A DNA stretch of 64,000 nt from Propionivibrio sp. (GCF_016790145.1 NZ_JAEUOI010000026.1:19680-83679), one strand, 5' to 3'. Shown: positions 16,115 through 26,499, numbered from the stretch's first letter. Made by a program: numbers and translations. The notes: a model not told the origin generated them from the sequence alone.

Positions 16115-17545
16115 TTAAAGCACGTCCCTGACGGCCGGCTCATCGGCCGCCGGCAAGACCAGCACGACACGCAGGCCGCCCAGTGGCGACTCGGCCAGTT
16201 CGACCCGTCCGCCATAGAGGCGGGCCAGATCGTCGACAATGGCCAGCCCGAGACCGGAACCGGGAACATGCTCGTCAACACGTTCACCGCGATTCAGCAC
16301 CCGCTTGCGCTCGCCTTCGGCGATGCCGCGCCCGTCGTCGTCGATTGTTATCAGCACTTCGCCGCCGCTCACCGCCAGTGACACCTCGATGCGCCGCACG
16401 GCCCATTTGCAGGCGTTGTCGAGCAAATTGCCCAACATCTCCTGCACGTCCTGCTCTTCGCCGCGAAAGACCACCGGCATGCTGAGCGGGTGGACAACAA
16501 TTTCGAGATTGCGCTCGACATGAATTCGCCGCATCACTCGCAGCAGCCCGTCGAGTACCGGCAAAACGGCTGTGCGCGCACCCGGAACACGCACCGAGGC
16601 CGCCGCTCTTGAGCGGCTCAGGTGGTAGTCGATCTGCTTTCTCGCCACGGCAACCTGGGCGGTCACCACTTGTTCCAGCCCGCCCGACTTTGCCACCGCC
16701 GCGTTGGCGATCACACTCAGCGGCGTCTTCAGGGCATGCGCCAGATTTCCCGCCTGGGTACGCGCCCGCTCGATGACTTCGGCATTCTGGGTCAGGACAC
16801 TGTTGAACTCCTCGACCAGCGGCTGGACTTCGCCGGGGAAACGTCCTTCAAGTTTTTGCGTGCTTCCGTTGCGCACGGCGGCCAGGGCTCCGTGCAGACG
16901 CCTGAGCGGAGCGAGCCCGACCAGCACCTGGAAGACAACGGCCAGCCCCAGCCCGAAGCCGAGCATCCCCAGCGCCAGCCACAGCATGCCTTTGAAATTT
17001 TCCACCGGCTCGTGCATTTGCTGCTCATCGGCAGCGACGAGCAGCCGGAAGGTCTGACCTGGCCGATCCGCTGCATCCTCAATTGTGACGACACGTTCAA
17101 CGACGCCCAGCCTGGCATTGCCGGGGCCTGGAACACTATGCTGATGAACTTCTCCATCCCGCAGCGTATCGGCGGGCAACCTGAGCACCTCATCCCAAAG
17201 CGAGCGTGAGCGCAACAGGCCAAGGGCGGCGGTGGGCGACGGGCCAATACGATCGATCTGCCAGTAAATTCCCGAGTAGGGCTTGCTGAAACGCGGATCG
17301 CTCTGAGCCACGGGAAGCAAAGGCTGCCCGGCCCGATCAAGCACCAGATGCGCCGCCAGTTGATCAAGATGGGTGTTGAGCTCGGCGTGGAACTGCATGG
17401 CGACGTGCTGACTGAACAGGCTGCCGAGCGCCCAGCCGGCAGCGACAATCGAGACCGCGATCCAGACCAGCGTCCCGAGCAACAGGCGTAGACGCAGCGA
17501 ACCGCGCAGCGCCGTCGACGGCTGTTTTGTGCCAGCGCCGATCAT
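16115..17545 (-). CDS. Membrane sensor histidine kinase (PhoQ/QseC/FeuQ-like)
   Basis: Two TM segments, NLAHALKTPL H-box, NLLDNACKW, DDDGRGI, GSGLGL; 4-bp overlap with the regulator. Confidence 0.92.
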   Translation of the reverse strand: MIGAGTKQPSTALRGSLRLRLLLGTLVWIAVSIVAAGWALGSLFSQHVAMQFHAELNTHLDQLAAHLVLDRAGQPLLPVAQSDPRFSKPYSGIYWQIDRIGPSPTAALGLLRSRSLWDEVLRLPADTLRDGEVHQHSVPGPGNARLGVVERVVTIEDAADRPGQTFRLLVAADEQQMHEPVENFKGMLWLALGMLGFGLGLAVVFQVLVGLAPLRRLHGALAAVRNGSTQKLEGRFPGEVQPLVEEFNSVLTQNAEVIERARTQAGNLAHALKTPLSVIANAAVAKSGGLEQVVTAQVAVARKQIDYHLSRSRAAASVRVPGARTAVLPVLDGLLRVMRRIHVERNLEIVVHPLSMPVVFRGEEQDVQEMLGNLLDNACKWAVRRIEVSLAVSGGEVLITIDDDGRGIAEGERKRVLNRGERVDEHVPGSGLGLAIVDDLARLYGGRVELAESPLGGLRVVLVLPAADEPAVRDVL

Positions 17546-18207
17546 GGAGAAACGAGGCGATAACCCAAACCGCGTACCGTTTCGATCGCGCCCTCGGGCA
17601 GCTTCTTGCGCAAACGGGCGATGAATACTTCAACGGTATTGGAATCGCGATCAAAGTCCTGGGCATAGATGTGCTCGATCAGAGTGCTGCGCGAGACGAG
17701 TTGCCCCGGATGGTGCATCAGATAGTCGAGCACCCGGTATTCGTGGCTGGTCAGCGTCAGCGCCTGCCCCCCCACCGTGACTCGGCTATGCAGGGTATCG
17801 AGCACCACCTCGCCGCACACCAGTTCGGCGCTGGCATGGCCACCGGCCCGGCGGATCAGCGCACGCAGGCGCGCCAGCAATTCTTCCATGTGAAAGGGCT
17901 TGGCCAGATAATCGTCGGCACCGGCATCGATCCCGGCCACCTTCTCGTGCCAGTTGTCACGAGCGGTCAGGATCAGCACCGGCATGGTTCGTCCGGCGGC
18001 ACGCCATTTCTTCAGGACGGTGAGCCCATCCAACTGCGGTAGCCCGAGATCGAGAACGACCGCATCAAAGGGCTGGTTCTCGTCACCCCCCTGGAAGTGC
18101 GCATCGACGCCATTACTCGCCACATCGACGGCATAACCGGCGACACCCAGCGCCTCGGCCAACTGCGCCGCAATTGTCGGCTCATCTTCAACGACTAGGA
18201 CACGCAT
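17542..18207 (-). CDS. OmpR/PhoP-family response regulator
   Basis: MRVLVVEDE, VVLDLGLPQLDG, GADDYLAKPF, IETVRGLGY. Confidence 0.95.
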   Translation of the reverse strand: MRVLVVEDEPTIAAQLAEALGVAGYAVDVASNGVDAHFQGGDENQPFDAVVLDLGLPQLDGLTVLKKWRAAGRTMPVLILTARDNWHEKVAGIDAGADDYLAKPFHMEELLARLRALIRRAGGHASAELVCGEVVLDTLHSRVTVGGQALTLTSHEYRVLDYLMHHPGQLVSRSTLIEHIYAQDFDRDSNTVEVFIARLRKKLPEGAIETVRGLGYRLVSP

Positions 18208-18223: not shown

Positions 18224-18562
18224 TCAACGCTCAATTTTTGCATCATGATCCCGGTGCGGAATAATCGTCCCGTCACGCGCATCCACCCTGAGCTTCACCA
18301 GCGAACCGCCCGGTCGCAATACCTTGATCTCGTACACCCAGCGCCCTTTGTCGCGCTCCAGCTCGACTTCCATGACCTGGCCCGGCGAGTCGCGATCAAC
18401 CTTCTCCAGAACCGTTTTAAGCGGCAGTATCTCGCCGGCTTCAAGCGCCTGGCGGGCACGGTCATGGTCGCCGACATCGGCGGCGAAAACCGGAAAAAAA
18501 ACCGCAATGGACAGGATAAGGCCGACCGCCAACATGCCCGTTTTTTTTCCTCCCGATCCCAT
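18224..18562 (-). CDS. Secreted PepSY-domain protein
   Basis: Signal peptide, DHDRARQALEAGEILPL, EVELE...WVYEIK...VDARDG; GGAG RBS before ATG 18562. Confidence 0.85.
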   Translation of the reverse strand: MGSGGKKTGMLAVGLILSIAVFFPVFAADVGDHDRARQALEAGEILPLKTVLEKVDRDSPGQVMEVELERDKGRWVYEIKVLRPGGSLVKLRVDARDGTIIPHRDHDAKIER

Positions 18563-18683
18563 TGCTTCTCCTGGGAAAAATTCAAAAAAGATGAAGTCGC
18601 GCGGGCGACTCAACAATCACCCCTCGCGGACATCTGCATTCCAATCCCTTACTGGCGGAACAAGTGAGAGCAAGGCAAGCTTT

Positions 18684-19211
18684 CTACATATCACGGACAA
18701 GATGAGCGAATTCGTCAACTTTTTGCCAATCGGTAAATTCAACTACCGTCGATGGGTCGGTAGGTCCCTTGGTCATCAACATGATCAAGCGGATCATCAA
18801 GCGGTCAAAGAATCTGTATTTCGGATAATCCAGTTTGCCGGCAAAGACTGCAAGTTTCTTGGGGCGCCACGCTATCTGCTTGAGAAATTTGCGCATGTAG
18901 GGATTGGTTTCCGGACGGTTCTTTTCCTTCTTTCGGGCAACGATATTGACCGAGAAAAAGGCATTCGATTTACTTTCCAGAAGCTGCAAGTGGCTATTAA
19001 TAAAATCCAGAACCAACGGGTTATGTTTCCCATAGCGAATACTGGCACCGATAATTATTTTGTCATAAAAATCCAGATCTACCTGACGGAAATCATCGAC
19101 AGGAACCAGTGTTACATGATTCGAGCTCTCTTCAATCACCTGCTTCAGACGTTTGCCTATCTTTTTCGTGTGACCATCGGTAGATGAAAACAGGATAAGG
19201 ATATTGGCCAT
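18684..19211 (-). CDS. hemG: Menaquinone-dependent protoporphyrinogen IX dehydrogenase (flavodoxin fold)
   Basis: FSSTDGHTKKI, GASIRYGKH, FFSVNIVARKKEK, FAGKLDYPKY, EFTDW. Confidence 0.9.
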   Translation of the reverse strand: MANILILFSSTDGHTKKIGKRLKQVIEESSNHVTLVPVDDFRQVDLDFYDKIIIGASIRYGKHNPLVLDFINSHLQLLESKSNAFFSVNIVARKKEKNRPETNPYMRKFLKQIAWRPKKLAVFAGKLDYPKYRFFDRLMIRLIMLMTKGPTDPSTVVEFTDWQKVDEFAHLVRDM

Positions 19212-19330: not shown

Positions 19331-20077
19331 TTACGGCTTTGCCCTCTCAATGCGCACGCTGACGGTTCCACCCTTGGGCTTTTGCGCGATCTTCAGGAGG
19401 AAGCGCTCGCTGCCTTTCGTGTATTCGTGCGTTTCTGTTTCCAGAGTGGAGGTCTGCAACGCCTGAGTGAAGCCCTTCGCGGCGAATTCCTTGGCATAGT
19501 AATCCAGAACCTTGACGTAATCCGCCTTGCCTTCAAACTCAACCGTCGCGGCTGCCCCTGGCCCGATTGCCCGCTGCCATTGGCTGCGCGTGAGTCCCGG
19601 GTAGCGCGCTACCGGCCCGAGATCTTCGCCGGACACGTCGCGTTGCGGAGCCGTTTCCGGCTTTAGGGCAGGCACCAGCCCGGCCAGCATTTCACGCGCG
19701 CCAGGCACGCTCTCTGTTACCTGATCCAGCACTCCCTTGGCAGCGGGAACACGCTCCTTGACCTGATTGATAACGTTTTGAGCACCGGGGACACTCTGTC
19801 TGGCTTGATCCAGCACGCCTTGAGCGCCGGGGACAATTCCTTTGACTTGTTCAAGCAACATATTCGTCGTCCCACGTAGCGCGTCAGGAGCAGCGCCAGC
19901 CAGGCTCTGGGTTTGTCCCCAGAGCCAACTGACCAGAGCCAAAGCGGCCCAGATCAGCAGGCCAATAAATACCAGCAGGCCAATGCCGGCGGCAAACCAG
20001 GTCCGGCGTCGGACCTGAAAGAACCCCGGCGCGAAGTTGGCGGCTTGAGCGATAAGACCAGGCTTGTCCATATGCAT
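19331..20077 (-). CDS. Single-pass membrane hypothetical protein with 14-aa tandem repeats
   Basis: TM segment WFAAGIGLLVFIGLLIWAALALVSWLW; repeats VPGAQGVLDQARQS-like x4; start may be 20071. Confidence 0.75.
   Translation of the reverse strand: MHMDKPGLIAQAANFAPGFFQVRRRTWFAAGIGLLVFIGLLIWAALALVSWLWGQTQSLAGAAPDALRGTTNMLLEQVKGIVPGAQGVLDQARQSVPGAQNVINQVKERVPAAKGVLDQVTESVPGAREMLAGLVPALKPETAPQRDVSGEDLGPVARYPGLTRSQWQRAIGPGAAATVEFEGKADYVKVLDYYAKEFAAKGFTQALQTSTLETETHEYTKGSERFLLKIAQKPKGGTVSVRIERAKP
19667..19834 (-). repeat. Four in-frame 42-nt (14-aa) tandem repeats
   Basis: VPGAQGVLDQARQS / VPGAQNVINQVKER / VPAAKGVLDQVTES / VPGAREMLAGLVPA. Confidence 0.8.
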
Positions 20078-20174
20078 TTCCTTTGTAAGTGTTTGCTGTC
20101 AAGGCGGCGTCTTGAGCGAGTTCCTCGCCACTTGCTTCGTCGGAACTGAGGCTGTCGTGGTGATGCTCACCGGC

Positions 20175-20204
20175 AAAAACTCCTGTCTGATGGTTAGACA
20201 GGAG
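20175..20204 (-). terminator. Intrinsic terminator
   Basis: Minus strand CTCCTGTCT-AACCATC-AGACAGGAG followed by TTTTT. Confidence 0.7.
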
Positions 20205-20358
20205 GGTTACTTTGACCCGCCGCCGGTCTTTGGGAGGTTTCACCGGGGTGCCTTGACATTGAATAGGGAACGGAGAGAAAGACAATGGTCATCATCACGG
20301 AGAAACTAACGGCGAATCCAGGCAACAGGCCAGCAGATATAGTCATTCGAGTTTTCAT
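20194..20358 (-). CDS. Putative 54-aa small membrane protein (below ORF-track cutoff)
   Basis: MKTRMTISAGLLPGFAVSFSVMMTIVFLSVPYSMSRHPGETSQRPAAGQSNPPV; hydrophobic core, stop inside terminator hairpin, no clear RBS. Confidence 0.4.
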   Translation of the reverse strand: MKTRMTISAGLLPGFAVSFSVMMTIVFLSVPYSMSRHPGETSQRPAAGQSNPPV

Positions 20359-20390
20359 GGGGGATTGTCATCTGCAAATAGGGAAACATC

Positions 20391-20424
20391 AGTCTAATCG
20401 CAGTTTTATTAACCGGAGCTTAAC
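20391..20424 (-). promoter_or_regulatory. Candidate OmpR/PhoP-type direct-repeat box plus -10
   Basis: GTTAAG-N5-GTTAAT-N11-TAGACT. Confidence 0.45.
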
Positions 20425-20663
20425 GCGCGCCTTGCCAAGGCGCTGTCTTCCAGTGACATCTTGTTCTCATCGCGCCTGGCGAGCACCCCACTGGCGATGA
20501 AAACACCGTCCTCACTAGGTTTCCCCGAGGTGACCGATACTTTGTCTTCCTTGACCAAGCTGCAGATTATTGCTCAGGCCAAAAATGGATGAAGTTCTCA
20601 CCCCGTCCTTCACCGGGGTGACGGTAGTTTCAAATTTCCTCGGGCCGGATCAATAGCCGCCGA

Positions 20664-20696
20664 TTCAGCTTCTGTTCAGGTTCGCTACGGCAAAGT
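20664..20696 (+). promoter_or_regulatory. Candidate OmpR-type direct-repeat box upstream of SHP
   Basis: TTCAGC-N5-TTCAGG (11-bp period) then weak -10 CAAAGT. Confidence 0.45.
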
Positions 20697-20727
20697 GCAC
20701 CTAACCGCAAATTGAAAGGAGAATCGC

Positions 20728-21144
20728 TTGAAAACCCAAAAAGCAACAACGCTGCTGCTGGCCGCGCTTTTGCTGCCGCTCGGCAGTTACGCCGCATCAC
20801 GCGATGAGCTTCTGGCTCAGTATGCCCTTTCAGCCAAGGCCGCATCACCGGCATTTTCGGGGTTTTCCGCCGCGCGAGGGGAAAAGCTGCATGTCACGAA
20901 GTTTGCCGGCGGCAAGGCGGAAACGCCGGCCTGCACCGCCTGCCACGCCGACAGCCCGCGCAGTGCCGGACGCACGCCGGCCGGCAAGTCAATCGAAGCG
21001 CTCGCCGTATCGCTGACTCCCGCGCGCTACACCGACCCGGCCAAGGTCGAGAAGTGGTTCAAGCGCAATTGCAATGACGTGCTCGGGCGCGAATGCACGC
21101 CGCTCGAAAAGGGCGACTGGCTGAGCTACATGATCAGCCAGTAA
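20728..21144 (+). CDS. Sphaeroides heme protein (SHP)/DUF1924 monoheme cytochrome c
   Basis: Signal peptide, CTACH, RYTDPAKVEKWFKRNCNDVLGREC with the C-terminal Cys pair; TTG start. Confidence 0.88.
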   Translation: MKTQKATTLLLAALLLPLGSYAASRDELLAQYALSAKAASPAFSGFSAARGEKLHVTKFAGGKAETPACTACHADSPRSAGRTPAGKSIEALAVSLTPARYTDPAKVEKWFKRNCNDVLGRECTPLEKGDWLSYMISQ

Positions 21145-21189
21145 GCCTGAGAATCTGTGAAATATCATAACTGCCTGATTTTCACGCTC

Positions 21190-21311
21190 GTCACCCCGTC
21201 GCACCCCAGGAGTGTTTCCTTCGGGGCACAAGCCGGGGTCCAGCTCGTTTATCTGATCAATTTTATGAATATCAGAGGAAGGTACTGGATTCCGGCTTTT
21301 GCCGGAATGAG
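21190..21311. repeat. REP/REPIN-like inverted dyad, copy 2
   Basis: GTCACCCCG...AAGCCGGGGTCCAG facing CTGGATTCCGGCTTTTGCCGGAATGAG. Confidence 0.7.
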
Positions 21312-21401
21312 CGCGAAGCCTGGCCTCGGGCCACGGCTTGGGCGGTGTTTATCCATTAATTCATAGCCTCTGAGAGGAAAACTGACTTGAAAGGCATCAC
21401 C

Positions 21402-21893
21402 ATGAAAATTCCCTTCCGCCCCATTGCACTGGGCCTCGTTGTCCTGCTCTTCTCGGGCGTTTTGCTTGAGCGGGCGCAGGCCGGTGGCGGCCATTTCTTT
21501 CCCCCGGTAGCCGATCCGCTGGTGCGTGAGGAATGTGGTTCCTGTCACCTCGCATTTGCACCTTCGATGCTGCCGAAAAGTTCTTGGACGCGGATGATGG
21601 GCGACCTGAAGAACCATTTTGGCGACGATGCCAGCATCGACACCGCTAAAACCGAACGTATCACCCGCTATCTCAACGCCAATGCCGCAGACAGCGGTAG
21701 CCAGCGCAATGGCAGCAAATTTCTGCGCGGAGTTTCCATGGAGAACGGGCCCTTGCGGATTACCGAGTTGCCCAAGTGGGTCAGCGAGCACCGAGGGATT
21801 TCTCCCGCTGAATGGAAGAGCAAGAAAGTCGGCAGCAAGGCCAATTGCGTGGCCTGCCACGTTGACGCGGAACGCGGTTATTACGACGAGTGA
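21402..21893 (+). CDS. Diheme cytochrome c (DHC family)
   Basis: Signal peptide; EECGSCHLAF, W...NHFGDDAS, LRITELP, SKANCVACH; alternative TTG start 21387. Confidence 0.88.
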   Translation: MKIPFRPIALGLVVLLFSGVLLERAQAGGGHFFPPVADPLVREECGSCHLAFAPSMLPKSSWTRMMGDLKNHFGDDASIDTAKTERITRYLNANAADSGSQRNGSKFLRGVSMENGPLRITELPKWVSEHRGISPAEWKSKKVGSKANCVACHVDAERGYYDE

Positions 21894-21915
21894 AAATATT
21901 CAATAAGAATACTCC

Positions 21916-23235
21916 ATGAAAAGTATATTATTCATACTGCTGGCGATAATATCCGCCACCTGGGGCCTTGATCTGGCCACCTCCAGCTTCCCACCCGACA
22001 GCCACATCCTGTGGATCGTTCGCCAAGAGGGAATGTATCTGACGGGCCTGCTGTCGATTGCCCTGATGTCGCTCTCCATGGTGCTCGCCACGCGTCCGGC
22101 CTGGCTCGAAAAACCGCTCGGTGGCCTCGACCGCATTTACCGCCTGCACAAATGGTCGGGAATCCTGGCTATCGGCTTTGGCGCCAGTCACTGGCTGCTC
22201 AAGCTCTCCAGCGACATCCTCAAACCGCTCATCGGAGTCGAAGGACGTCTGCCGAAAATAAAATATGACGGTTTGCTCGAAGTGTTGCGCGAACTAGGCG
22301 ATGACATGGGCGAACCGGCGCTGTACGCGATGTTGGCCATGCTTGCCGTCACCCTGTGGCGGCGATTCCCCTACCACCTGTGGCGTCACCTGCATCGGGT
22401 CATGCCGGTACTCTATCTGATGTTGGCCCTGCACGCGGCCTTGCTGGCGCCTCTGACATACTGGGCGCAACCGGTGGGTATGCTGATGGCCGCCTGTCTT
22501 GCCGTAGGCGTAGTCGCCAGCGTCATGTCACTGGCCGGGATGATCGGGCGGCGCCGTCAGGTGAATGGTTTGGTTGTTGCGGTCAACAGCGATGGCGACG
22601 TGACCGAAGTCACCTGCCAGCTTGACGAACAGTGGCAAGCCCATCGCCCCGGACAGTTTGCCTTCATCACCTTTGACTGGATCGAGGGCGCGCATCCCTT
22701 CACCATCGCCAGCGCCGATCGCGGCGAGAGGACGATCACCTTTTTCATCAAGGCGCTGGGTGATTTCACGAATAAGCTTGCGCAGCGGGTCAAGACCGGG
22801 CAGACGGTCAGGATCGAAGGCCCTTACGGCCGCTTCCAGCTTGCCCGCAGCAAACCGGACAGCCGCCAGATCTGGGTGGCCGGCGGAATTGGCGTAACGC
22901 CTTTCCTGGCCTGGCTGGAATCTCTGCAAGCGCGCCCGGAAGAAACGCGCGAAGCCGACCTGCACTATTGCACGCGCAACCACGAGTCCGACCCCTTCGT
23001 CGGCCGCCTGCAAACGCTGTGCGCCGCGCTACCCGGAATTCGCCTGAACATTCACAGCGCAAAGCATGGTGACGTTTTGACCGCCGATGCGCTCAAGCTG
23101 GCCGAGGGACAGAAGAAAAAGGCCGACGTCTGGTTCTGCGGGCCGAGCGGACTCGCCGACGCGCTGAAAAAAGGTTTGAAGGATTCCTGGAATGGACGTT
23201 TGCGTTTCCATCAGGAGGCCTTTGAGATGCGTTAG
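21916..23235 (+). CDS. Ferric-reductase/NOX-like transmembrane flavocytochrome (di-heme b + FAD + NAD(P)H domains)
   Basis: H-X13-H and H-X12-H in TM helices, HPFTIAS, EGPYG, GGIGVTPF, FCGP, C-terminal EAFEMR. Confidence 0.88.
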   Translation: MKSILFILLAIISATWGLDLATSSFPPDSHILWIVRQEGMYLTGLLSIALMSLSMVLATRPAWLEKPLGGLDRIYRLHKWSGILAIGFGASHWLLKLSSDILKPLIGVEGRLPKIKYDGLLEVLRELGDDMGEPALYAMLAMLAVTLWRRFPYHLWRHLHRVMPVLYLMLALHAALLAPLTYWAQPVGMLMAACLAVGVVASVMSLAGMIGRRRQVNGLVVAVNSDGDVTEVTCQLDEQWQAHRPGQFAFITFDWIEGAHPFTIASADRGERTITFFIKALGDFTNKLAQRVKTGQTVRIEGPYGRFQLARSKPDSRQIWVAGGIGVTPFLAWLESLQARPEETREADLHYCTRNHESDPFVGRLQTLCAALPGIRLNIHSAKHGDVLTADALKLAEGQKKKADVWFCGPSGLADALKKGLKDSWNGRLRFHQEAFEMR

Positions 23236-23443
23236 AAAGCCAGGAATTAATTTTAGCCCAGGCTATGCCTGAGTGTTTTTGTTCAATTCTTTAGAGCTGA
23301 AATCCGCAACACCGGATCAATTCAAACTATTAGTCATACCCAGGCAGGAGAACTGTTCGCCAGCGCACATACTTTAAGAGTGAATTGGCGGAATTTAATA
23401 ACTTGGTCATCTTTTGATGACTGCCAGCATGAGGATTTATCTA

Positions 23444-23788
23444 ATGAGAACGCGCGCCGGAGTAATTGTTTTGGCATCAACACTTGCAGGTGTGATGACG
23501 ATGTTATCCACCGGCTGCAATAAACCTCAGGAGGCGATAGCTACAGCACCGCCTAGCACCAAGGTGGGAGCCGATATTAGCGACAGCGAGGTGAGCACCC
23601 GGGTCAAGACGGCACTGCTACAGGATGCAAACCTCAAACGCTTTAATATTGCTGTTGCAACGCTCAAGGGAGATGTCAGGCTCACTGGCTTGGTCGACAA
23701 CCAGAGCCAGATCGACCAGTCCATTAAATTAGTCCGCAGTATCCCAGGCGTTCATACCATCCACGATGAACTTGGAATCAAAAAATAA
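23444..23788 (+). CDS. BON-domain lipoprotein
   Basis: STGC lipobox, DSEVSTRVKTALL, GDVRLTGLV, VRSIPGV; GAGGA RBS before ATG 23444. Confidence 0.8.
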   Translation: MRTRAGVIVLASTLAGVMTMLSTGCNKPQEAIATAPPSTKVGADISDSEVSTRVKTALLQDANLKRFNIAVATLKGDVRLTGLVDNQSQIDQSIKLVRSIPGVHTIHDELGIKK

Positions 23789-23890
23789 AGCTTAACGAGG
23801 TGTTATCGCTCAAGTCCGGCAAATGCTCCAGCGTTCCAATGGCAATGGGTGACTTCTCCTCGATCATTGGCGCACCTGGCTCATAGTCAC

Positions 23891-25174
23891 ATGACATCAC
23901 TCTATCTGTCGCTCTGGATCGCTCTGGGAATCGTCCTGCAACTGGCGCTCTATCTGGGCATCGTCTTCTGGCGCCACTGGGCAGGTTATCAGGCCTTGCG
24001 CAGCGTTGCGGCCGATCTGGATTTGCCGGTGCCGCAAGCAGTACTTCCGGCCAGCGAGGAAACTGCCGTTGCCGCCTGGACTGGCTTCCGAACCTTCCGT
24101 GTCGAGCGCAAGACCATCGAAGACGCCATGCAATCGGTCTGCTCGTTTTACCTCGTTCCGGAAGACGGAAAGCCGCTCCCGTCTTTCCTGCCCGGGCAGT
24201 TTCTGACCTTCCGCCTTGATGTACCGACGAGTGCTGGCGGCAGCGAACAGATCGTTCGCTGCTATTCACTTTCGGATGCCCCGCGTCCCGATGGTTACCG
24301 CGTCTCGATCAAGCGCGTGCCTTCGCCCGCCGGCAGCGCAGGCATCGATCTCCCGCCCGGTCGGTCATCCAATCATTTTCACGATCACATCGAAGTCGGC
24401 AACCTGCTGCAGGTGCGCGCACCCTCCGGGCATTTCCATATCGAGCGCAGCGAAGCGCCGGTGGTACTGATCGGCTGCGGCATCGGCATTACGCCGATGC
24501 TGAGCATGCTGAACTGGAGTCTGGCTGAACAGAAAGGGCGTGAAGTCTGGCTGTTTTACGGTGTGCGCCATGGCCGCGAGCTGGTGATGAAATCCCATCT
24601 CGAAGCGCTGGCGGCGCTGCATCCGAACTTTCATTTGCACGTGTGCTTCAGCAACCCGCAGGCGGAGGATATGGCTGGGCGCGATTATCAGCACCGTGGC
24701 CGCGTCGATGTAAGCCTCCTGCGCATGCAACTACCGATCAAGTCTTATCACTTTTACATTTGCGGGCCTTCGCCGATGATGGAAAGCTTGGTACCGGCGC
24801 TGGAGAATTGGGGCGTGCGCGATTCGCATATTCACTTCGAGGCCTTCGGCCCGGCTTCGATCAAACGGCGGAATGCGGTGACAGCGGTGGCAGCGGCGTG
24901 CGGTGACGCCATGACGGGCGACATCATCGTGACCTTTGCCCAGTCGGGCAAAAAGCTGGCCTGGCCAACCGCCAGCAGCAACCTGCTCGACTTTGCCGAG
25001 AATGGTGGTATCGCCGTCAATTCCGGATGCCGGGCCGGGGGCTGCGGCAGTTGCCAGACGACGATTCTCTCCGGCGAGGTGAGCTACCATCAGTCTCCGG
25101 ATTTCGACCCCGAGCCGGGCACCTGCCTGCTCTGTGTGTGCACGCCCAAGACCAGCCTGACCCTGGAGGCCTAG
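23891..25174 (+). CDS. Membrane-anchored FAD/NAD(P)-binding oxidoreductase with C-terminal [2Fe-2S] ferredoxin
   Basis: N-terminal TM helix, RCYSLS, GCGIGITPM, YICGP, HFEAFG, CRAGGCGSC...LLC. Confidence 0.88.
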   Translation: MTSLYLSLWIALGIVLQLALYLGIVFWRHWAGYQALRSVAADLDLPVPQAVLPASEETAVAAWTGFRTFRVERKTIEDAMQSVCSFYLVPEDGKPLPSFLPGQFLTFRLDVPTSAGGSEQIVRCYSLSDAPRPDGYRVSIKRVPSPAGSAGIDLPPGRSSNHFHDHIEVGNLLQVRAPSGHFHIERSEAPVVLIGCGIGITPMLSMLNWSLAEQKGREVWLFYGVRHGRELVMKSHLEALAALHPNFHLHVCFSNPQAEDMAGRDYQHRGRVDVSLLRMQLPIKSYHFYICGPSPMMESLVPALENWGVRDSHIHFEAFGPASIKRRNAVTAVAAACGDAMTGDIIVTFAQSGKKLAWPTASSNLLDFAENGGIAVNSGCRAGGCGSCQTTILSGEVSYHQSPDFDPEPGTCLLCVCTPKTSLTLEA

Positions 25175-25753
25175 ATGGAAAAATCGCTCTGGCGGGAGCA
25201 GATTCTGCCCTTCACCGCGCTGATGGGCTTGCTGGCGTTAGCCACCCTGGCCGGCGACTTTCTTCTGCACCGGCTGAATCTGGTCTGGGTCGGCCGTTAT
25301 CTGGGCATTCCCGGAACGATCCTGATCATCCTCTCGCTGGTCTACTCGCTGCGCAAACGCAAATACATCAGCAGTGGCAATCCGAAAACGCTGCTCACCC
25401 TGCATGAGATCGGCGCCTGGCTGGGCTCGGTGATGGTGCTGATCCATGCCGGCATCCATTTCAACGCCATCCTGCCCTGGCTGGCGACCATCGCCATGGG
25501 CGTCAATGTGATCAGCGGCATGGTCGGGAAACTGCTGCTGAGTCGCTCGCGCCGCCATTTGCAGGGCCAGCGCGAGCACTTTCAGTTGCGCGGCCTGTCG
25601 CAGCCGGAGGTGGAAAAAGCCTTGTTCTGGGATGCGGTGACGTTCGACGCCATGGCCAAGTGGCGAAAAGTACATATCCCGATTTTCATCGTTTTCGCGG
25701 TGCTGGCGCTCGGCCACATCATCAGCATCATTTTGTTCTGGGGCTGGATATGA
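25175..25753 (+). CDS. Integral membrane protein with two H-X13-H pairs, putative di-heme b
   Basis: HEIGAWLGSVMVLIH and HIPIFIVFAVLALGH; YSLRKR motif; ATG abuts the upstream TAG. Confidence 0.75.
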   Translation: MEKSLWREQILPFTALMGLLALATLAGDFLLHRLNLVWVGRYLGIPGTILIILSLVYSLRKRKYISSGNPKTLLTLHEIGAWLGSVMVLIHAGIHFNAILPWLATIAMGVNVISGMVGKLLLSRSRRHLQGQREHFQLRGLSQPEVEKALFWDAVTFDAMAKWRKVHIPIFIVFAVLALGHIISIILFWGWI

Positions 25754-26499
25754 GCCGAATCGTCAAGATCATTCTGGCCGTCAACCTGATTGCCTTAACG
25801 GTTCTGGTTTTCGTCTACCCCAATCTGATGGTCGGGCCGGGCAAGCTGATCCCCGGCCACAAGTCACTGGAAACCGACTGTTTTGCCTGCCATGCCCCGC
25901 TGACCGGTGCGCAATCGGCGCGCTGCGTCACCTGCCACAAGCCGGGGGAAATTGGTCGCCTGACCACGACGGGCCTGCCCATCGTCAAACCGCTGACCTC
26001 GACGCCGTTCCACCAGAAGCTGGTCAGCGAGGATTGCGTGGCGTGTCATAGCGATCATGCCGGCGTCAAACGCTTCCGGCCGCAAGGACATTTCAACCAT
26101 GACTTGCTGAAGAAGGAGACGCGTGAAATCTGCCAGGATTGCCACAAGGCACCTGTCGACCCGCTGCACAAGCAGATTACCGGCAACTGCAAGCAGTGCC
26201 ACAGCCAGGACAAATGGAAACCGGCGACCTTCGACCACGACAAGTATTTCCAGCTCGACCGCGACCACAACAAGGGCTGCGTCACCTGCCATGTGCGCAA
26301 CGATTACAGCAGCTACACCTGTTACGGCTGCCACGAGCACACGGCAGAAAATATTCGCCGCAAGCACGTCGAAGAAAATATCCGCAATTTCAGCAATTGC
26401 GTTGAATGCCACCGCAGTGCCAACGAGCATGACATCCGTCGCGAGGGCGGAGAAGGTGAAAGCAAGCGCGTGAAGAAAAACCGCGATGGCGACGATTGA
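25750..26499 (+). CDS. Octaheme cytochrome c with N-terminal membrane anchor or signal
   Basis: Eight CXXCH: CFACH, CVTCH, CVACH, CQDCH, CKQCH, CVTCH, CYGCH, CVECH; ATGA overlap with the upstream gene. Confidence 0.9.
   Translation: MSRIVKIILAVNLIALTVLVFVYPNLMVGPGKLIPGHKSLETDCFACHAPLTGAQSARCVTCHKPGEIGRLTTTGLPIVKPLTSTPFHQKLVSEDCVACHSDHAGVKRFRPQGHFNHDLLKKETREICQDCHKAPVDPLHKQITGNCKQCHSQDKWKPATFDHDKYFQLDRDHNKGCVTCHVRNDYSSYTCYGCHEHTAENIRRKHVEENIRNFSNCVECHRSANEHDIRREGGEGESKRVKKNRDGDD

Follow-up and report, generated by a model that had tools for sequence, protein, structure and literature searches.

The 64,000-nucleotide stretch of Propionivibrio sp. DNA analysed here (GCF_016790145.1 NZ_JAEUOI010000026.1:19680-83679; hereafter the window, whose positions we use unless a locus label precedes them) carries at 20728-23235 three consecutive genes, which encode a homologue of SHP (DUF1924, PF09086), a soluble dihaem cytochrome c (DHC, PF09626) and a NOX-like flavocytochrome with a ferric-reductase domain (FRD, PF01794). 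We lean towards reading these genes as a regulated electron-transfer module in which the NOX-type flavocytochrome replaces the quinol-oxidising cytochrome b (PF01292 throughout this text) as the membrane donor of the SHP system. The features of the locus are as follows.

20728-21144, plus strand: SHP homologue (DUF1924), a periplasmic monohaem cytochrome c with a ligand-binding distal pocket, 138 amino acids (Pfam, PDB match)
21145-21386, no strand assigned: dispersed repeat element of ~230 bp (blastn against the host's own genome)
21387-21893, plus strand: DHC, soluble dihaem cytochrome c, 168 amino acids (Pfam, PDB match)
21916-23235, plus strand: SpNOX-like flavocytochrome (FRD plus FAD/NAD(P)H dehydrogenase), 439 amino acids (Pfam, PDB, AlphaFold2 and Foldseek)
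23259-23281, plus strand: terminator-like hairpin and T-run, 24 nt past the FRD stop codon (consensus scan and sequence, a pattern match only)

An earlier note on this DNA had described an SHP-DHC operon completed by a flavocytochrome, and three intact plus-strand open reading frames are indeed framed exactly by 20728-23235. The DHC and FRD genes are separated by 22 bp, and the SHP and DHC genes by 243 bp, compared with 10-45 bp in most relatives. The repeat element in the longer spacer gave 121 blastn pieces on many contigs of the host's own genome, several of them 200-230 bp long at 77-90% identity; it contains IPAFAGM in translation and resembles a MITE- or REP-type element. This genome, estimated to be 99.8% complete, encodes a single SHP and a single DHC. 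A cytochrome b is absent from the window locus, and the genome's three copies lie on contigs C183, C83 and C146 with no DHC or SHP gene near any of them: one adjoins a gene for a 236-residue secreted protein, one a gene for a 1377-residue protein, and one sits inside another cytochrome cluster. In NCBIfam, none of SHP, DHC and the FRD protein matched an equivalog.

The first two gene products are readily assigned. SHP matched DUF1924 with 118.3 bits (cut-off 22.5) and, in the PDB, the Rhodobacter sphaeroides SHP 1dw0 (E 2e-27, residues 30-138) and cytochrome c'' 1e8e (E 3e-18). It has one CXXCH motif, CTACH at residue 69, and its segment KRNCNDVLGREC pairs with GRNCNSVIGRDC of 1dw0, with RNC (the Asn sixth ligand and a Cys) and GREC (the second Cys) both kept; the two motifs are kept throughout the clade of FRD-linked SHPs described below, and their Cys would form a disulphide of the C89-C97 type. 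DHC matched its Pfam family with 136.6 bits (cut-off 22.2) and the PDB entry 2fw5, itself a DHC, with E 4e-33; its haem motifs are CGSCH at 50 and CVACH at 154, and its real start may be the ATG at 21402 (MKIPF...). Both proteins have N-termini that, judged by eye, look like signal peptides. SHP, found in 1985, is the sole c-type cytochrome known to bind O2 stably; NO dioxygenase activity has been reported for it and electron transfer to it from DHC has been demonstrated in vitro, and it has neither an established function nor a proven physiological donor (PMC2909971). Binding of O2, NO and other small ligands by reduced SHP is established for the R. sphaeroides and A. vinosum proteins only, and the title of one reference terms the DHC haems low-potential.

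The third gene product bears every motif that the earlier note had named, namely H78-X13-H92, H160-X12-H173, HPFT(I) at 260, GIGVTP at 324, CGP at 408 and a terminal E-x-F (EAF at 434-436 of 439 residues), and it has FAD and NAD(P)H domains of its own, since Ferric_reduct, FAD_binding_8 and NAD_binding_1 each scored above the Pfam cut-off. Thirty orthologues (58-84% identity) all keep the four haem His, HPFTIA, GIG(V/I)TPF, CGP and the C-terminal FHQEAFEMR. Judged by the features that Hajjar 2017 used to define bacterial NOX, the protein has two bis-His pairs on separate transmembrane (TM) helices, HPFTI, GIGVTP, and six TM helices followed by a dehydrogenase. Its top PDB sequence matches were the SpNOX entries 8qt6 and 8qq7 (E ~2e-26). 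An AlphaFold2 model built on the orthologue alignment (pLDDT 83.7, pTM 0.80) consists of six long helices followed by an FNR-like beta/alpha domain and places the haem-ligand His on helices 71-97 and 153-177; searched with Foldseek, it retrieved SpNOX first (8qt6, 8qta and 8qq7, E 1e-23 to 5e-19, TM-score 0.72-0.80) and then NOX5, DUOX1 and NOX2. The TM topology was taken from this model and from motif placement. As the dehydrogenase must be cytoplasmic to meet NAD(P)H, H78/H160 would hold the inner haem and H92/H173 the outer one, the latter pair being predicted at the periplasmic ends of TM3 and TM5 in this orientation.

Two parts of the periplasmic face deserve comment. First, the TM3-TM4 loop is ~23 residues longer than that of SpNOX and among the best-conserved parts of the protein (K103, G107, G110, R111, R125, G132 and E133 are invariant), and it is a likely docking surface for DHC. 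Second, the residue at position +4 from H92 is K96 in the window protein and E, Q or K in relatives, never His; we take this position to be that of the O2-site His of NOX5. W33 and R36, at the periplasmic end of TM2, are invariant or nearly so. In eukaryotic NOX and csNOX5 the O2 centre at the outer haem comprises two His, one Arg and a haem propionate (PMC11564096). Because the +4 residue is K, E or Q and not His, such a centre is not evident in the FRD protein, a weak argument since SpNOX is also without it and yet reduces O2. As separate observations, the dehydrogenase half gave a weak match to the NCBIfam entry 'NO-inducible flavohemoprotein', and the same genome encodes on contig C45 (931-2184; locus L086) a second FRD-FAD-NAD flavocytochrome of 417 amino acids, 31% identical to the window protein, whose neighbours (191, 348 and 168 amino acids) look by eye like an ECF sigma factor, an ACR3-type arsenite carrier and ArsC.

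A survey of SHP neighbourhoods, drawn from samples and not from a census, places this gene combination in a small minority. From 400 genomes drawn evenly from the class, DUF1924 was found in 64, giving 66 loci besides that of the window; SHP coordinates were compared with genome-wide PF01292 and PF01794 searches, and loci left unresolved were then fetched. The note's premise that SHP usually goes with a cytochrome b was borne out: a cytochrome b adjoins SHP in at least 62 of the 66 loci, three are cut by contig ends and one is unresolved, and an FRD protein stands next to SHP in none of the 66. From 300 genomes of the order, SHP being present in ~30% of them, we took the 71 whose SHP matches were strongest, looked in them for PF01794 and added one with a cytochrome b (G149), to give 72; a long-form FRD lies next to SHP-DHC in three of these (G636, G466 and G543), and G623 is a possible fourth case across a contig break. 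Within the window's own family, a different SHP type (42-47% identity) occurs, followed by cytochrome b, regulator and kinase. The published rule of SHP plus DHC plus cytochrome b is thus good for the great majority, and the window falls among the few per cent that depart from it.

What the FRD protein replaced is shown by a locus from a genome of the same order (L100), in which regulator, SHP and DHC are arranged alike and the third slot is taken by a cytochrome b. The position of the partner is not always so alike, in that the cytochrome b mostly lies 5' of SHP and the FRD partner 3' of DHC. Three genomes of the class sample (G181, G342 and G379) that first appeared to have an FRD neighbour of SHP were discarded as sub-threshold PF01794 cross-matches on cytochrome b-mDHC fusions, and a fourth candidate (L130) was discarded as well, the FNR half of the jackhmmer profile having matched a cytochrome b561-FAD-NAD-Fer2 fusion. 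In that last genome (G228; L130:4451-7129), SHP-DHC divergently adjoin a gene for this 531-residue fusion of PF01292, FAD_binding_6, NAD_binding_1 and Fer2, and an ECF sigma/anti-sigma pair follows DHC. The arrangement suggests an unrelated and independent acquisition of a pyridine-nucleotide-fed b-haem partner beside SHP-DHC, that is, convergence.

The association of the FRD gene with SHP and DHC is conserved well beyond Propionivibrio. A scan with one genome per species found 251 genomes with close FRD relatives, and the best 80 of these (57-88% identical; Rhodocyclaceae, Thiobacillaceae, Comamonadaceae, Gallionellaceae, Oxalobacteraceae, Sterolibacteriaceae and others) were examined, with linkage counted by tblastn and home-made hidden Markov models and checked against Pfam in representative cases. 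Directly upstream of FRD and on the same strand, DHC is found in 68 of the 80 and SHP in 62, several of the others being short contigs; PepSY, regulator and kinase genes lie divergent from SHP in 59-63 of the 80. The commonest layout has genes for a histidine kinase, a response regulator and a PepSY protein on the minus strand, followed on the plus strand by SHP, DHC, a second PepSY gene and FRD. Since the linkage is kept in 68 of 80 loci across many families, chance adjacency of FRD is excluded. The FRD-type arrangement is kept in roughly 200 species genomes. In a maximum-likelihood tree of 111 SHP domains, all FRD-linked SHPs fall into one clade (58 rows, support 99/96), sister to a cytochrome-b-linked SHP; the single clade implies that the swap happened once and that inheritance and transfer have since kept the module together.

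The second PepSY gene lies in a DHC-FRD gap of 400-800 bp in 56 relatives, where it encodes a small secreted PepSY_2 protein (e.g. L058:5431-5979); the window and its nearest relatives are without it. We had considered that such gaps might hide a cytochrome b, a candidate that was rejected when they proved to hold the PepSY_2 gene instead. Candidate roles for this protein are those of a sensor accessory, a metal-binding protein or an FRD partner. Farther downstream, ~600 bp past FRD, lies a cassette (23849-26499) encoding a membrane-anchored FAD/NAD/[2Fe-2S] reductase, a 192-residue membrane protein without a known family and a multihaem cytochrome c; among the 80 FRD-type loci, 20 have a similar cassette within 6 kb past FRD, one of them on the opposite strand, and one further locus has it upstream.

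As a mechanism that fits the topology, the conservation and the published biochemistry of SpNOX, we favour, as somewhat more likely than not, a chain that runs from NAD(P)H through FAD and two b haems to DHC and SHP, in which we infer every transfer step as well as the nucleotide, the final substrate and the inducing signal. FAD on the C-terminal dehydrogenase domain would be reduced by cytoplasmic NAD(P)H, and electrons would cross the membrane from the inner haem b (H78/H160) to the outer haem b (H92/H173), exit on the periplasmic side near the conserved, lengthened TM3-TM4 loop and pass to soluble, low-potential DHC, which in turn would reduce SHP. The open distal pocket of SHP would then react with O2 and/or NO, most likely in a periplasmic NO dioxygenation or another detoxifying reduction; this end reaction we put forward with less assurance than the chain that leads to it. 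Cytoplasmic NAD(P)H, and not quinol, is the presumed electron source because the partner is an FRD-FAD-NAD(P)H flavocytochrome and not a cytochrome b. As electrons would leave a cell that is negative inside, the chain would spend both reducing power and membrane potential, a cost that suits detoxification, as a periplasmic counterpart of flavohaemoglobin, better than respiration. The DHC haem potentials are presumably near -240 and -310 mV; if these values are right, a donor at the level of NAD(P)H and NOX haems fits so low-potential an acceptor better than quinol does.

A precedent exists in SpNOX, which under anaerobic conditions reduces cytochrome c directly, at 124.7 per min, its rates being 48 per min with O2 and 3.6 per min with Fe(III). 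The outer haem of SpNOX is exposed to solvent, and no O2 pocket can be recognised; its authors propose a protein acceptor and consider that oxygen may not be the real one (PMC11564096, PMC5676040). Taken together, the protein identities, the fold, the gene linkage, the replacement of cytochrome b, the single SHP clade, the co-occurrence with DHC, the SpNOX precedent, the convergent fusion of G228 and the conserved promoter box described below suggest that the FRD protein is the donor to DHC and SHP.

Several observations weigh against this conclusion. FRD orthologues with 60-65% identity stand alone, with no SHP, DHC or PepSY gene nearby, in ~7 genomes, and one locus (L023) has the regulators, PepSY and FRD in a genome that encodes DHC nowhere; because both situations exist, the enzyme has no strict need of DHC. 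In ~9 Thiobacillus-like loci a cytochrome b gene lies just 3' of the FRD gene (~100 bp past it in most of L022, L025, L029, L031, L044, L046 and L093, and ~550 bp past it in L072) and could encode the real donor there. In two loci (L017:4562-11293 and L019:4549-11166) the FRD-type operon has a canonical SHP-DHC-cytochrome b-response regulator-histidine kinase operon in tandem behind it, so the two types are not simply interchangeable. In the window itself, the ~230-bp repeat between SHP and DHC contains a weak terminator-like site (consensus scan), and because of these two features SHP may be transcribed apart from DHC-FRD in this genome, the repeat uncoupling them. The claim that the flavocytochrome stands instead of a cytochrome b therefore calls for qualification. 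It holds at the window locus and at most FRD-type loci, where no PF01292 gene is present, and it gains from the cytochrome b in the third slot of L100; it does not extend to the relatives that encode both proteins or to the genomes in which FRD is alone, and the second small PepSY gene that most relatives have between DHC and FRD makes the plain three-gene form of the window uncommon.

The same observations feed the alternative that survives best, one that we regard as a genuine but doubtful prospect. Here the FRD protein would act autonomously, as a periplasm-facing NAD(P)H oxidase or reductase (of superoxide-forming, Fe(III), Cu(II) or other type) that shares the SHP-DHC regulon and is not the donor; in a variant, SHP and DHC may handle its product or receive electrons from another carrier. 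Lone orthologues in Glaciimonas-, Herminiimonas- and Noviherbaspirillum-like genomes, the persistence of regulators, PepSY and FRD in L023 in the absence of DHC, and the cytochrome b of the Thiobacillus-like loci all fit such an enzyme, as do the in vitro activities of SpNOX with O2 and, weakly, Fe(III) (PMC11564096), the name of the family and the eukaryotic relatives, which point to such chemistries. Set against it are the tight, co-inherited linkage to DHC and SHP and the fact that most FRD-type loci, including that of the window, have DHC with no other membrane donor. Moreover, DHC is encoded in eight of nine genomes with an unlinked FRD orthologue, including all six of L007, L010, L012, L020, L021 and L048, where it lies elsewhere in the genome, although the figure of ~30% for the order with which this might be compared is that of SHP and not of DHC. 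The NOX O2 centre that is not evident in the protein (K96, or E or Q in relatives) also speaks against an oxidase, a weak point given that SpNOX is alike in this respect.

We think it unlikely that DHC and SHP are served by a cytochrome b encoded elsewhere, or by the 192-residue membrane protein of the downstream cassette (25175-25753), which has four histidines, with the adjacency of FRD reflecting shared regulation or chance. The genome does have three cytochrome b561-type genes, a second NAD(P)H-to-periplasm cassette does lie ~600 bp downstream, as it does in the 20 loci mentioned, and FRD and cytochrome b do occur together in some relatives. Yet none of the genome's cytochrome b genes is near DHC or SHP, the cassette has a multihaem cytochrome c of its own and is not found within 6 kb downstream in 60 of the 80 FRD-type loci, and the 68 kept linkages exclude chance adjacency. 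In this architecture, FNR-type NOX dehydrogenase domains are to our knowledge only NAD(P)H oxidisers, which counts against a flow in the opposite direction, from SHP through DHC, b haems and FAD to NAD(P)+. Such a reversal might serve the many carriers that are iron/sulphur lithotrophs or denitrifiers and need reverse electron flow, and the SHP complex of Fe(II) oxidisers has been speculated in the literature to feed the quinone pool, but for any likely periplasmic donor it is highly unfavourable to send electrons inward, with the membrane potential opposing, to an acceptor at -320 mV, and SHP is a ligand-binding terminal protein, so that we judged this route energetically implausible and give it very little credence.

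Returning to the FRD protein as donor to DHC and SHP, we examined how the operon might be switched on. The neighbouring features are the following.

16115-17545, minus strand: SK1-type sensor histidine kinase, 476 amino acids (SK1 signature motifs)
17542-18207, minus strand: OmpR/PhoB-family response regulator, presumed regulator of the SHP operon (NCBIfam below cut-off, PDB matches)
18224-18616, minus strand: small secreted PepSY protein, the 'Orf1' of Meyer 2010, a DbfQ/BqsP-like kinase accessory (Pfam PepSY, 35.5 bits)
18684-19211, minus strand: hemG (NCBIfam HemG equivalog, 221 bits)
19331-20077, minus strand: 248-residue membrane protein with VPGAQ-type repeats (no family match)
20664-20679, plus strand: tandem TTCAG-N6-TTCAG box, a candidate site for the response regulator at -35 of the SHP promoter (cross-species conservation)

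The periplasmic part of the kinase contains SGIYWQ and RSRSLWD, and the SK1 kinase of SHP operons is defined by SGVYWQ-like and RSRSLWD motifs (Meyer et al. 2010, PMC2909971). Its core is PhoQ-like with a score under the cut-off and gave no NCBIfam equivalog; a relative lies divergent from SHP in 59 of the 80 related loci by tblastn. The response regulator had PmrA-, RppA- and QseB-like NCBIfam matches, all under cut-offs, and PDB matches of which those to DrrD, BasR and PhoP were the best and which included the receiver domain of CarR (BqsR); it is 74-96% identical in FRD-type loci, with a tblastn match in 63 of the 80. The PepSY protein was found in 61 of the 80 and, by its resemblance to DbfQ of V. 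cholerae, a PepSY protein that modulates its kinase from the periplasm by binding the sensory domain (PMC12714742), may be a periplasmic modulator of the adjacent kinase.

Between the PepSY gene and SHP, relatives share a region of ~180-250 bp that serves as an otherwise kept divergent promoter; in the window it is split by hemG and the 248-residue gene, which occupy this position in only two and one of the 80 relatives, respectively. The SHP upstream consensus in FRD-type loci reads cTGAACgcaGGATGAACggcgGATTCAccttccGTTCAG, then ~15 nt, then GCA(A/T)AGT. Of the 62 regions upstream of SHP in FRD-type loci, 58 contain the pattern TTCA-N7-TT[CA]A[GA], its median position being -66 relative to the start codon, compared with 0.25 per 62 expected from shuffled sequences. 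The TTCAG-N6-TTCAG copy of the window lies at -64 and is followed by GCAAAGT, the conserved -10-like word. Where hemG and the 248-residue gene intervene, the left half of the conserved block, which probably serves the divergent PepSY promoter, is missing, and the right, SHP-side half remains. A sigma-70 promoter scan of 20000-24000 found none, and the proposed SHP promoter accordingly rests on cross-species conservation. By its architecture the box is like the operator of BqsR, defined by experiment as TTAAG-N6-TTAAG and overlapping the -35 element (PMC4358008), and the SHP operon is probably switched on through it by the PepSY/response regulator/SK1-kinase module. As a side observation, the second SHP gene of L017 and L019 has CTTAAG-type repeats upstream that read like the BqsR box.

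Published transcriptomes indicate when such clusters are expressed: an SHP cluster with PepSY-type regulators is strongly induced by Fe(II) in Sideroxydans ES-1, another is strongly induced in Allochromatium vinosum grown on pyrite, alongside genes for ferrous-iron efflux, and a third is strongly induced while Fe(II) is being oxidised with nitrate reduction in Ferrigenium. We would venture, tentatively and as a proposal that may well fail, that in at least one large clade of NOX homologues from bacteria the physiological acceptors are periplasmic c-type cytochromes and not O2, and that an NAD(P)H:cytochrome c chain of this kind powers NO dioxygenation or reduction by SHP, induced by the PepSY-modulated sensor in response to stress from Fe(II), nitrosative agents or envelope damage. 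Were this so, the chain would also explain how the very low-potential DHC is reduced, which quinol explains poorly.

Each of the three proteins is an ordinary member of a known family; what is new is their combination, widespread but overlooked. In the literature that we searched, no link of SHP/DUF1924 or DHC to a ferric-reductase or NOX-type protein is described, an absence that is not proof of novelty. In the 2010 survey, which covered 42 species, the partners described are all cytochromes b, and no reductase or flavoprotein is mentioned (PMC2909971); surveys of FRD proteins and of NOX proteins (the latter PMC5676040) do not discuss gene neighbourhoods. Bacterial NOX homologues are numerous, and two SpNOX structures appeared in 2024; the operon names a candidate protein acceptor, and it makes two questions testable, one on what bacterial NOX homologues reduce and one on SHP, its donor and its function. 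An NAD(P)H-fed variant would mark a pathway worth reducing power and membrane potential to the cell and so points to detoxification or repair, not to energy conservation, and the independent cytochrome b561-FNR-ferredoxin fusion beside SHP-DHC suggests that the idea is a general one. The carriers include denitrifiers, iron/sulphur oxidisers and polyphosphate- or glycogen-accumulating bacteria of wastewater (Thiobacillus, Gallionellaceae, Rhodoferax, Dechloromonas, Accumulibacter and Propionivibrio), and because of these lifestyles the system may matter for the handling of NO and N2O in engineered and groundwater systems.

Among known systems, the nearest is the canonical SHP operon (SHP/sDHC/CytB-mDHC of Rhodobacter sphaeroides; PMC2909971), which likewise has SHP and soluble DHC side by side, the Asn-ligand and disulphide motif in SHP, an adjacent SK1 kinase, regulator and PepSY Orf1, and a membrane b-haem protein to complete the set; it differs in that the partner in the window is a 439-residue PF01794 flavocytochrome 3' of DHC and not a PF01292 cytochrome b. 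SpNOX (8qq7, 8qt6; PMC5676040, PMC11564096) shares with the flavocytochrome the order of domains, the H-X13-H and H-X12-H spacing in TM3 and in TM5, the motifs for FAD and NAD(P)H and the C-terminal Phe, and its haem pairing (H69/H129 and H83/H142; PMC11564096) follows the same pattern. By contrast, the two proteins are only 21-22% identical, the TM3-TM4 loop of SpNOX is the shorter one, and SpNOX has no known partner, whereas the window gene is accompanied by genes for two c-type cytochromes; since the host of the window is Gram-negative, unlike that of SpNOX, the outer haem would face a periplasm.

In MsrPQ (YedYZ), an analogy used by the SpNOX authors themselves (PMC11564096), an FRD-type b-haem membrane protein also feeds a periplasmic redox protein of the same operon, although MsrQ has no fused dehydrogenase and uses quinol or a separate flavin reductase, and its partner MsrP is a molybdoenzyme and not a cytochrome c. 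The flavohaemoglobin Hmp, an NO dioxygenase, likewise drives an O2/NO-binding haem with an FNR-like NAD(P)H/FAD module, but it is one soluble cytoplasmic polypeptide with a globin haem, whereas the chain proposed here would be spread over three proteins and cross the membrane, so that the analogy is functional only. Finally, the regulatory trio resembles DbfQRS of V. cholerae and BqsPQRS/CarRS of P. aeruginosa in combining a PepSY protein, an OmpR-type regulator and a two-TM kinase with a pentamer-N6-pentamer box; the window box is TTCAG and not TTAAG, the window kinase is without the periplasmic RExxE Fe(II) motif of BqsS, and it is resemblance, not orthology, that we claim.

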